A stretch of 64,000 bases of DNA from Eledone cirrhosa (lineage: Eukaryota): contig OZ024748.1 in the NCBI GenBank assembly GCA_964016885.1, forward strand, positions 24,738,001-24,802,000, given 5' to 3'. The position numbers and the translations under genes were made by a program. The notes beneath the pieces were generated by a model that was not told the DNA's origin, did no database searches, and worked only from the letters and a program-made list of their open reading frames with translations. Shown in pieces: positions 61,262 to 63,419 of this stretch (within the stretch, counting starts at the first letter, position 1; each line of letters starts with the position of its first letter).

Positions 61262-61405
61262 CACCTATACTCAAGTTTCAAATATGGATTTGAATACTTA
61301 GGTACCCTAGAAAGAGAGATGATATTCCCAGTGACAGAAAAATCTTTGATACAATTATTGAGGACTGTAACATCATTTAATGCGGGCCTTTGTATTGGAG
61401 ATCAA
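61262..61405 (+). CDS. Dynein HC-like exon 33 (start of AAA1)
   Basis: tttcag / gtaag; HLYSSFKYGFEYLGTLEREMIFPVTEKSLIQLLRTVTSFNAGLCIGDQ. Confidence 0.93.
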
Positions 61406-62310
61406 GTAAGAATAACATTTTTCAAGTTTAATTAATTTCTGTTATTTTTCATTGAAGCTGAACCCGAATCACATTAGTGTCATTAAATTTGGAGGCCTGT
61501 CAAAGGTTATGAGTAGTGCTGCCTTCTGATTTTATCATCACCACCATTTACTTCACTTTCTATACTAGCATGGGCTGGAAGAGTTTGGCATGGTTTCTAC
61601 ACCTGGATGCCCTTCCTAAAGCCAACCACTTTACAGAATGTACTGAGTGTGTTTTTCATGACCCTAGCACTACCACTTTACAAAATGGATTGGGTACAGT
61701 TTGTCATAGCACCAACACTAGAGAGGTTATATAGTATATCATCATATATATATGGCGTATCATCACATATATATGGCATATCACCATATACATGGCATAT
61801 CACCATATATATATATATATATGGCATATCATCATATATATCTATATGGCATATCACCATATATATTTATATGGCATATCATCATATATATATATGACAA
61901 ATCATCATATATATGGTGGTTGTCTGCTCCTTGCAGAACTATACCTTTTCTTTTACATATAACCACTCTTTATAGTGTGAGATCTTAAATGACTTTTGGC
62001 CCTGAAAGCTGTTTGAAGAGCTGACTACAAATACTACAGCAATGTCTTATTTCAGCATTAGCTCCATTTTTCCACTTGTTTATAATGAATGTTTGAGTGC
62101 CGTTTCAGGTGTTTTGATAAACATGGCATTGAAACACACACACATATACATATGTGTGCTTGTATGTGTGTGCTTGTATGTGTGTGTTTGTGTGTGTGTG
62201 TGTTTGTGTGTGTGTACATATATATATATATGCAAGTCAATTGAAATAAAATCTGAAGGTGTGTGCAAAAATTCCATGTAGTAGCAATATGCAGACATAG
62301 AAACTTGTAT

Positions 62311-62391
62311 AAGTGCCTGAAGATTAGGTCATACTTTTGATCCCTCTTACATTCTGGTCAATATTGGGTCTTGAAATCTTAGGTAGCGCTT
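62311..62391 (+). ncRNA. Hammerhead ribozyme motif with long stem II
   Basis: AAGTGC-CTGAAGA-ttAGGTC...GGTCTt-GAAATCttaGGTA-GCGCTT; GUA triplet ends at 62385. Confidence 0.6.
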
Positions 62392-62435
62392 TTGTTCCGT
62401 GTATGAACATAAACATTATAATACAATATAATATA

Positions 62436-62504
<69 letters not shown>

Positions 62505-62532
62505 GTTTAATCATATATTCTTCTTTGTAAAG

Positions 62533-62662
62533 AATGGTCAAAATATAGAGACTGTCAAAGAACTCAGCTACAGTCTTGGAAAGGCTATATATTTCATGAA
62601 CTGTTCCTCAAGTGTAACAACTAATATTCTACAAGATGTCTTGAAAGGAATGATATTAACAG
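62533..62662 (+). CDS. Dynein HC-like exon 34 (AAA1, degenerate P-loop)
   Basis: gtaaag / gttagt; NGQNIETVKELSYSLGKAIYFMNCSSSVTTNILQDVLKGMILT(G). Confidence 0.92.
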
Positions 62663-63098
62663 GTTAGTTTGCTACTTTTGTAACATAATTTCAAATTTAA
62701 CCTTTTCATACGAAACCATCTGAAACTGTCTTTGATTCTATGATACAAAACTGTTTATTTTAATATTATGTAAATATTAAAACAATGTTTTGGGCTGGAT
62801 GTCCTTCCTGGAACCAGTTTTTTAGTTACATTTTGACATCCAACGAGATTAGTAAAGTATGTTTTTATCTAAATATGAACATTTTTAAAACAAACAGTTT
62901 ATATCCTAGAACCAGCAGGGATCGAGAGGGTTGCTATCAAAAGGTTAGAGAATGATGATGATGATACTGGTGATGATGATGATGGCGATTATAAATATTC
63001 TATTTTAAAACTTATGATTTTTAATCTAATTTCTTTCAGAATATTTCAGAAATTAATTTGGAGACAACATTTCATTGATTTTCATTTTATTTCTCTAG

Positions 63099-63419
63099 GA
63101 TGTTGGTTGTGTATGATGAACATTAATGGTCTGTTGCCTTCCCAGTCGGCACAGCTTGTCAGGGAGACTGCCAAGATAATGGATGCATACAAAAGCGGAC
63201 AATTTATAGTGAAACAAGGAGATAATGAAATAAAACTAATGCCAGGGGGAACAATAATTGCTACATTGTGTTCTACTAATGAGAATAAAAGATATGACCC
63301 AACCAAACTAACGGTCTATCCAGCTTTACTTCCTCCACAGTTAATCCAACATTTTAGACCTGTTGCATGTCTACGTCCTTCTTTTCAAGCTCTACTGGAA
63401 TCATTACTGTATGTTAATG
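63099..63419 (+). CDS. Dynein HC-like exon 35 (AAA1, degenerate Walker B/sensor I)
   Basis: ctctag / gtacgt; CWLCMMNINGL...IIATLCS...LPPQLIQHFRPVACLRPSFQALLESLLYVN(G). Confidence 0.92.

Follow-up and report, generated by a model that had tools for sequence, protein, structure and literature searches.

A class-13 axonemal dynein heavy chain gene of Eledone cirrhosa with a degenerate, predictedly hydrolysis-dead AAA1 site

Three divergent classes of dynein heavy chain, numbered 11, 12 and 13, have been described in animals (Kollmar, 2016; PMC5100056). In that study, class 11 is DNHD1, class 12 combines a class-3-like tail with an aberrant stalk, and class 13, which is metazoan and was found to share a genome with classes 11 and 12, comprises proteins of 4,800–6,000 residues whose tail resembles that of class 4, whose AAA5 is longer and which end in a unique low-complexity C-terminal extension. 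A class-12/13 heterodimer was proposed there from the homology of the tails; by its own account the study gave no detailed analysis of the sites for ATP hydrolysis and microtubule binding, and it assumed altered force production. A non-motile heavy chain of aquatic animals, DNAHX or dynein-X, has since been described as derived from DNAH5/8 (Chai et al., 2025, preprint; PMC11785096). In the preprint, the sea-urchin protein has a degenerate AAA1 that keeps its Walker B motif and binds ATP, carries insertions in the stalk, the MTBD and AAA4S, and has a sensor I-to-sensor II spacing of 71 by the preprint's numbering, while its partner head in the 8-angstrom map, left unidentified, shows an extended stalk of canonical form and lacks the AAA4S insert. 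By its description DNAHX is likely to be Kollmar's class 12, a name that does not occur in the available parts of PMC11785096. DNHD1, called an orphan by Braschi et al. (PMC8754002), also lacks catalytic Walker B residues and is needed for sperm flagella according to works cited in the preprint (PMC11785096).

Here we describe a gene of Eledone cirrhosa that joins this group. The window, by which we mean the whole 64,000-nucleotide stretch of DNA that was analysed, lies on C8 and holds on its plus strand 34 predicted exons with 1,785 codons (227..63419; curated model and single-exon Pfam matches), covering the tail from within DHC_N1, the linker and the first part of AAA1. The initial annotation had counted 35 exons and about 1,800 codons; the open frame was recovered, the exact count was not. 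Exons of the DHC_N1 region lie at 13838..23621 on the plus strand (PF08385, E 4e-5 on the exon at 21872-22162; tail tree; tail BLAST), and those of the linker (DHC_N2) at 43052..50468, also on the plus strand, where PF08393 matches five consecutive exons in profile order. Within the window the Pfam domains DHC_N1, DHC_N2 and AAA_6 thus follow one another in the correct order, all below the curated cut-offs, and a comparison with the Atlas also showed AAA_6 likeness. Downstream, AAA_7, AAA_8, MT and Dynein_C again follow in order, with a dynein-family match in six of ten exons tested. When single exons were searched against PDB sequences, three gave no match and two gave weak outer-arm matches (best E 0.006; DNAH17 E 0.11).

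The full model was built by a simple exon-chaining script on the window together with 40 kb of upstream and 200 kb of downstream sequence; the same script recovered canonical class-3 and class-4 genes well. It comprises 95 exons separated by GT-AG introns only and encodes 5,755 aa with no internal stops, although the absence of stops is partly by construction, because the script chains only open exons and segments were forced or banned by hand during curation, a few short exons having no homology support. All splice junctions are predicted, including the join to the C-terminal extension. In coordinates of the extended window the model runs from -21,497 to +182,200, that is, from about 21.5 kb upstream to 118.2 kb downstream of the window, so that a reading frame of 17.3 kb is spread over a repeat-rich locus of about 204 kb. 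Neither a start codon nor the 5' end was found in the model with the 40 kb of upstream sequence.

The introns contain several tandem repeats. In one of them a 37-bp unit, repeated about 330 times, forms a satellite of 12.6 kb (window 904-13546), and minisatellites are found at 33127-33699 (44 bp x 13, 100% matches), 56152-58162 (111 bp x 18, 99% matches) and 59999-60650 (48 bp x 13.6). The intron preceding the first AAA1 exon also harbours a tRNA-Cys(GCA) gene on the minus strand (59676-59749). Downstream of the gene, at 246812-252186 in extended coordinates, lies a retroelement with an open frame of 1,150 aa and an upstream ORF; its motifs suggest that the frame is endonuclease/reverse-transcriptase-like and the element of LINE type.

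The part of AAA1 inside the window is encoded by three plus-strand exons, for which we found the AG acceptors, GT donors and single open frame that the initial annotation had proposed, with the junctions being predicted. The first (61262..61405; splice read and orthologue comparison) carries the YGFEYLG scaffold and the first three Walker A residues, GDQ; the second (62533..62662; AAA_6 E 1.7e-5) carries the remaining degenerate Walker A, NGQNI, which has neither Lys nor Thr, and the NCS motif; and the third (63099..63419) carries a degenerate Walker B, CMMNIN, a degenerate sensor I, TLCSTN, the class-specific insertion YDPTKLTVYPA and the FRPVA motif. With slashes at the junctions, the spliced frame reads ...YGFEYLG...CIGDQ/NGQNIETVKEL...FMNCS...MILT/GCWLCMMNINGL...IIATLCSTNENKRYDPTKLTVYPALLPPQLIQHFRPVA. 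Aligned to canonical class-3 and class-4 chains of the same genome, Walker A has changed from GPAGTGKT to GDQNGQNI, Walker B from CFDEFN to CMMNIN, and sensor I from TMNPGY to TLCSTN, after which about 15 aa are inserted; the motif losses first noted at this locus are therefore borne out. Outside the window, sensor II is altered from WGLRA to WSLKG (Arg to Lys) and the arginine finger supplied by AAA2 from TVSRAG to LLTQVG (Arg to Gln); the functional roles of both elements are established for dynein. As a control, the Walker B Asp-Glu pair is intact at all 17 canonical AAA1 loci of the Eledone genome, and the Walker A GKT at each of the 13 canonical loci whose Walker A exon was read. The family search of the genome did not pick up the present gene.

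An assembly error at the motifs was considered and rejected, since contigs of three runs agree at the motif bases. These contigs derive from one sample of unrecorded type, possibly the source of the assembly, and cover introns, as is expected of DNA; they agree with the AAA1 exons except at 63251 (A>G, Thr/Ala), outside the motifs, and the exon at 62533-62662 is covered in two of the three runs. Alternative exons that would restore the motifs were likewise rejected, as no alternative or duplicate AAA1 exon was found in the introns or across the 304-kb region and the neighbouring introns contain no P-loop or Walker B peptide. One GKT string does occur in an intron, near 66,019, where it adjoins LINE-like sequence. 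The Walker A motif is interrupted by a phase-0 intron, and an intron of the same phase and position is present in orthologous loci L142, L143, L145 and L146, the four with both flanking exons modelled, which supports the Walker A splice as first drawn. As the initial annotation had argued, A-to-I editing cannot restore the catalytic residues: the AAT codon at the lysine position can yield only D, G, N or S, and the ATG at the first Walker B Asp only M or V. Editing could return the codons of the arginine finger and of sensor II to Arg and change the Asn of Walker B into Asp; a rescue of AAA1 by this route was nevertheless rejected, given the unreachable Walker A Lys and first Walker B Asp.

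AAA2 has an intact P-loop (GSAGCGKS), and AAA3 an intact Walker A (GPNGSGKT), Walker B (FIDDIN) and LLRHF motif, whereas AAA4 has a degenerate P-loop (TEGLPGS). At 307 aa, the stalk is exactly as long as in the class-4 paralogue, with a near-gapless alignment through the MTBD and a Pfam MT match; in the alignment to class 4 there are no insertions in the stalk, the MTBD or AAA4S. The AAA5 segment, in contrast, spans 216 residues where class 4 has 47 between the same anchors (169 aa longer), and a second insert is found near the buttress. After the C-sequence follows a low-complexity extension of 674 aa, with QNKSVD repeats and then a D/G-rich part, containing 180 Asp and 174 Gly; its exon is largely GAT/GGT microsatellite-like.

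The intact AAA3 motifs, which may be compatible with residual ATPase activity, raise the question of a slow or regulated motor in which nucleotide control has moved to AAA3 and which still cycles on microtubules. A stalk and MTBD of canonical length would fit such a motor, but studied dyneins couple the swing of the linker to AAA1, and here Walker A, Walker B, sensor I and the arginine finger of AAA1 are lost, sensor II has Lys for Arg, and the AAA4 P-loop is degenerate as well, so we regard a motor of this kind as unlikely.

We assigned the gene to a class from its tail, after checking the class-3 and class-4 reference labels against PDB chains (DNAH5 and DNAH9/17, respectively). In a tail tree of nine rows and 1,073 columns, in which three rows are less than half filled and the branch of the gene is long (1.65), it groups with two class-4 paralogues at 99/99; grouping with class 3 is rejected (p-AU 1.1e-5), as is grouping with the divergent locus on C5 (p-AU 2.7e-5). 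The tail BLAST scores agree, with 191 bits to class 4, 121 to class 6, 73 to C5, 44 to class 3 and 29 to class 5, and the nearest canonical paralogue is class 4, identical at 24% of the aligned positions. Paralogues share intron positions no more often than expected by chance, even class 3 and class 4. The outer-arm type of the tail suspected from its DHC_N1 region is supported, and can be narrowed to the DNAH9/17 type. The gene shares with the outer-arm beta chains DNAH9/11/17 the layout of tail, linker, six-AAA ring, stalk and MTBD, and differs from them in lacking a catalytic AAA1 and an AAA4 P-loop, in the 169 additional residues of AAA5 and in the 674-aa extension.

Together with this tail, the longer AAA5, the low-complexity C-terminal extension and a length within 4,800–6,000 residues without disabling mutations (5,755 aa in the hand-curated model) are the features by which DHC13 has been described (Kollmar, 2016; PMC5100056). 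We thus assign the gene to the class-13 axonemal dynein heavy chains, by the written definition of that class. The separate lineage that the initial annotation had offered as one option was correct, though it already has a name. What the Eledone gene and the class members read by us add to the description is a degenerate AAA1, the ATP sites being left without detail in PMC5100056. The name DHC13 also occurs in PMC10605206, where it belongs to Chlamydomonas nomenclature.

The Eledone genome contains three divergent dynein loci, namely the class-13 gene, C5 and C26. Identity of the class-13 gene with DNAHX (class 12), i.e., with a non-motile chain derived from the outer-arm gamma or DNAH5/8 type and having a folded-back stalk, has some points in its favor: the two have in common a degenerate AAA1, an outer-arm-derived tail (here with a DHC_N1 region), great length (more than 5,200 aa in Eledone), predicted non-motility and occurrence in aquatic animals, and in both sea-urchin DNAHX and the Eledone gene the sensor I Pro is replaced by Ser and the sensor II Arg by Lys. 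A degenerate AAA1 is, however, a shared property and not a diagnostic one. DNAHX stems from DNAH5/8 and keeps its Walker B, whereas the Eledone gene stems from DNAH9/17 and has lost it; the class-3 origin expected of DNAHX is rejected for the Eledone tail at the p-AU of 1.1e-5 given above; in place of the CC1/CC2 and MTBD insertions and the pre-sensor-II insert in AAA4S the gene has a normal stalk and an unexpanded AAA4S, with an AAA5 insert and a C-terminal extension instead; and its sensor I-to-sensor II spacing is 86 as opposed to 71.

The locus on C5 (33.20-33.35 Mb, minus strand; Walker A GTPDVGKK, Walker B CLNDGN) fits DNAHX better. Its tail is nearest to class 3 by BLAST (247 versus 95 bits), and in the tail tree class 4 is rejected for it (p-AU 8e-4) while a class-3 placement has a p-AU of 0.49. 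It has insertions in the tail, in AAA4S (the pre-sensor-II insert), in CC1 and CC2 of the stalk and in the MTBD. From the preprint's numbering and the spacing we infer that the Thr-to-Val change of DNAHX affects the fifth residue of Walker A, which is Val in C5 and Gly in the class-13 gene. C5 is thus probably the DNAHX/class-12 gene, and we rejected a DNAHX identity of the class-13 gene, which has a class-4 tail and none of these insertions, as very unlikely. The AAA1 of C5 looks more degenerate than that of sea-urchin DNAHX as described in the available text of PMC11785096.

The initial annotation had also suggested a DNHD1-like chain. The missing catalytic Walker B residues are indeed common to DNHD1 and the class-13 gene, but a different lineage is indicated by the outer-arm beta tail of the latter, with its DHC_N1 region of DNAH9/17 type, and a separate locus, C26 (7.43-7.50 Mb), fits DNHD1. 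C26 keeps an intact Walker A (GAPSVGKT), has DN in its Walker B (WALLDN), gave no DHC_N1 match and carries an insert after Walker B. Such an insert is a feature of DNHD1; C26 is probably the DNHD1/class-11 gene. We consider it extremely improbable that the class-13 gene is the DNHD1 orthologue, and rejected that identity. With motifs altered in the class-13 gene, C5 and C26 alike, all three divergent animal classes appear to be impaired at AAA1 in this genome.

Two further observations concern other dynein loci. On C19, at 6.68-6.83 Mb, two near-identical class-4 (DNAH9/17-type) genes lie inverted and tail-to-tail, and represent a recent duplication or an assembly duplicate. In a DNAH1-type gene on C9 (34.565-34.568 Mb; L069:5685 and L069:8314) the Walker B exon is present twice, possibly as mutually exclusive exons.

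Orthologues were sought through AAA1. A search with the Walker B exon gave five matches, three of them relatives with the same insertion after sensor I; the other two (P0001 and P0002) were dropped as likely repeats, short stretches having matched in several places. A scan with the alignment of the three relatives gave six loci, L142-L147, among 201 pattern matches, and a search from one of these six yielded a fragment of the gastropod Batillaria (P0015), whose best match among six modelled Eledone chains is the class-13 gene (327 bits; next is class 4 with 279 summed). Word-indexed protein searches with the exon and with an alignment gave no match among proteins of up to 2,000 residues. An AAA1 tree with 24 rows unites the Eledone class-13 gene, whose branch is long (1.68), with L142-L147 at 95/90 and places C5 elsewhere. 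Folding an orthologue exon from its single sequence gave a model of low confidence (pLDDT 52).

The Walker B Asp-Glu pair is absent from all seven orthologues (L142-L147 and P0015), being NN in six and TD in the snail, while the Walker A Lys is present in all seven, the next residue being Thr or Phe in three orthologues each and Leu in the remaining one. L142 furthermore has Ser at the arginine finger and His at sensor II. The dN/dS ratios of orthologue pairs, calculated by a simple Nei-Gojobori method on pairs excluding the Eledone gene and with an identity filter that biases dN downward, were 0.108 (1,475 codons), 0.078 (357 codons) and 0.011 (268 codons), with the L145/L147 pair saturated at synonymous sites. 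Given the loss of Walker B Asp-Glu in 7/7 orthologues and the dN/dS of 0.01-0.11, class 13 as a whole appears to be hydrolysis-dead at AAA1 yet under selection. As judged by these motifs, most class-13 orthologues could still bind ATP at AAA1, and the P-loop lysine loss is, among the eight class members read, particular to the Eledone copy.

This exception, together with the very long terminal branches (1.68 for AAA1 and 1.65 for the tail), which could mean relaxed selection, the microsatellite-like C-terminal exon and the missing start codon, would also fit a gene that is class 13 by descent but is decaying in the Eledone lineage, relaxed or recently silenced, with the lysine loss and the swollen D/G tail being drift. 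Against such decay stand the frame of 17.3 kb, kept open through 95 GT-AG exons although the 204-kb locus is rich in repeats, the exactly retained length of the stalk and the retained P-loops of AAA2 and AAA3, and we hold it to be improbable. A pseudogene is argued against by the same 95 GT-AG exons without a stop over about 204 kb and by the low dN/dS of the orthologues, so that the gene is apparently intact. The initial annotation's picture of an intact and selected axonemal dynein with a dead catalytic site is in keeping with these predictions, the purifying selection being that seen in orthologue pairs.

Hydrolysis at AAA1 drives the linker swing and the stalk affinity switch in dynein. 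With the Walker A lysine, the Walker B Asp-Glu and the arginine finger lost, hydrolysis at the Eledone AAA1 is predicted to be absent, and hence no powerstroke is expected. We therefore favor, with a probability of roughly 0.7, a reading in which the Eledone class-13 chain lacks AAA1 hydrolysis and likely serves, without moving, as a structural subunit in a two-headed complex of outer-arm-like kind. The outer-arm-like dimer is favored because a tail of beta type is expected to pair with one of gamma type, in this case that of class 12/DNAHX or of canonical DNAH5/8, and the tail would also bind intermediate and light chains. The class-13 head, being fixed, might hold its partner in an inhibited phi-like state for delivery; alternatively, it might serve through its intact stalk as a passive microtubule contact, providing drag or an anchor in the axoneme. 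The chain would thus lock, carry or brake its partner in cilia or sperm tails. Since the P-loop lysine is gone too, the Eledone AAA1 is probably nucleotide-free, which would favor a locked, microtubule-bound state in this copy. Of the structural or regulatory axonemal pseudo-dynein first put forward for this locus, the dead AAA1 and the outer-arm tail have held up; the role is something that we infer.

The partner head of dynein-X in the preprint map offers a place where class 13 could act. Both of its reported features, the canonical extended stalk and the lack of an AAA4S insert (PMC11785096), are common to the Eledone protein, although a canonical beta chain or an inner arm matches them equally. 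We tentatively propose, as a possibility that we rate well below even, that class 13 is a third animal dead-dynein lineage and the second head of the dynein-X phi particle, forming with DNAHX a pseudo-outer-arm. DNAHX would contribute a gamma-type tail and a broken stalk, DHC13 a beta-type tail and an intact stalk, and neither AAA1 would hydrolyse ATP; in aquatic sperm axonemes the assembly would act as a passive brake or scaffold and would not serve to carry single-headed inner arms. The DNAHX preparation contained, according to the preprint text, a minor 'DNAH9' (3.18%) beside DNAH17 (PMC11785096), and for another sea urchin, Strongylocentrotus, one class-4 gene is listed (Table S3 of PMC5100056). 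Speculatively, the minor 'DNAH9' might be a misnamed class-13 protein.

The Eledone chain is not a new kind of protein, because class 13 was described in 2016 and non-motile dyneins were known by 2025 at the latest, among them the heavy chains DNAHX and DNHD1 (PMC11785096). In the open literature that was searched, which took in the text of PMC11785096, we found no paper on the catalytic motifs or function of class 13. What the present analysis adds is the sequence evidence for a class-wide loss of the AAA1 Walker B together with a stalk of normal length, a combination unlike that of DNAHX; the likely identity of DNAHX with class 12; and a candidate, with a name, for the partner head in the dynein-X map. 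If the pairing is true, many aquatic animals would carry a doubly dead outer-arm-like complex, and the view of how dynein-X works would change.
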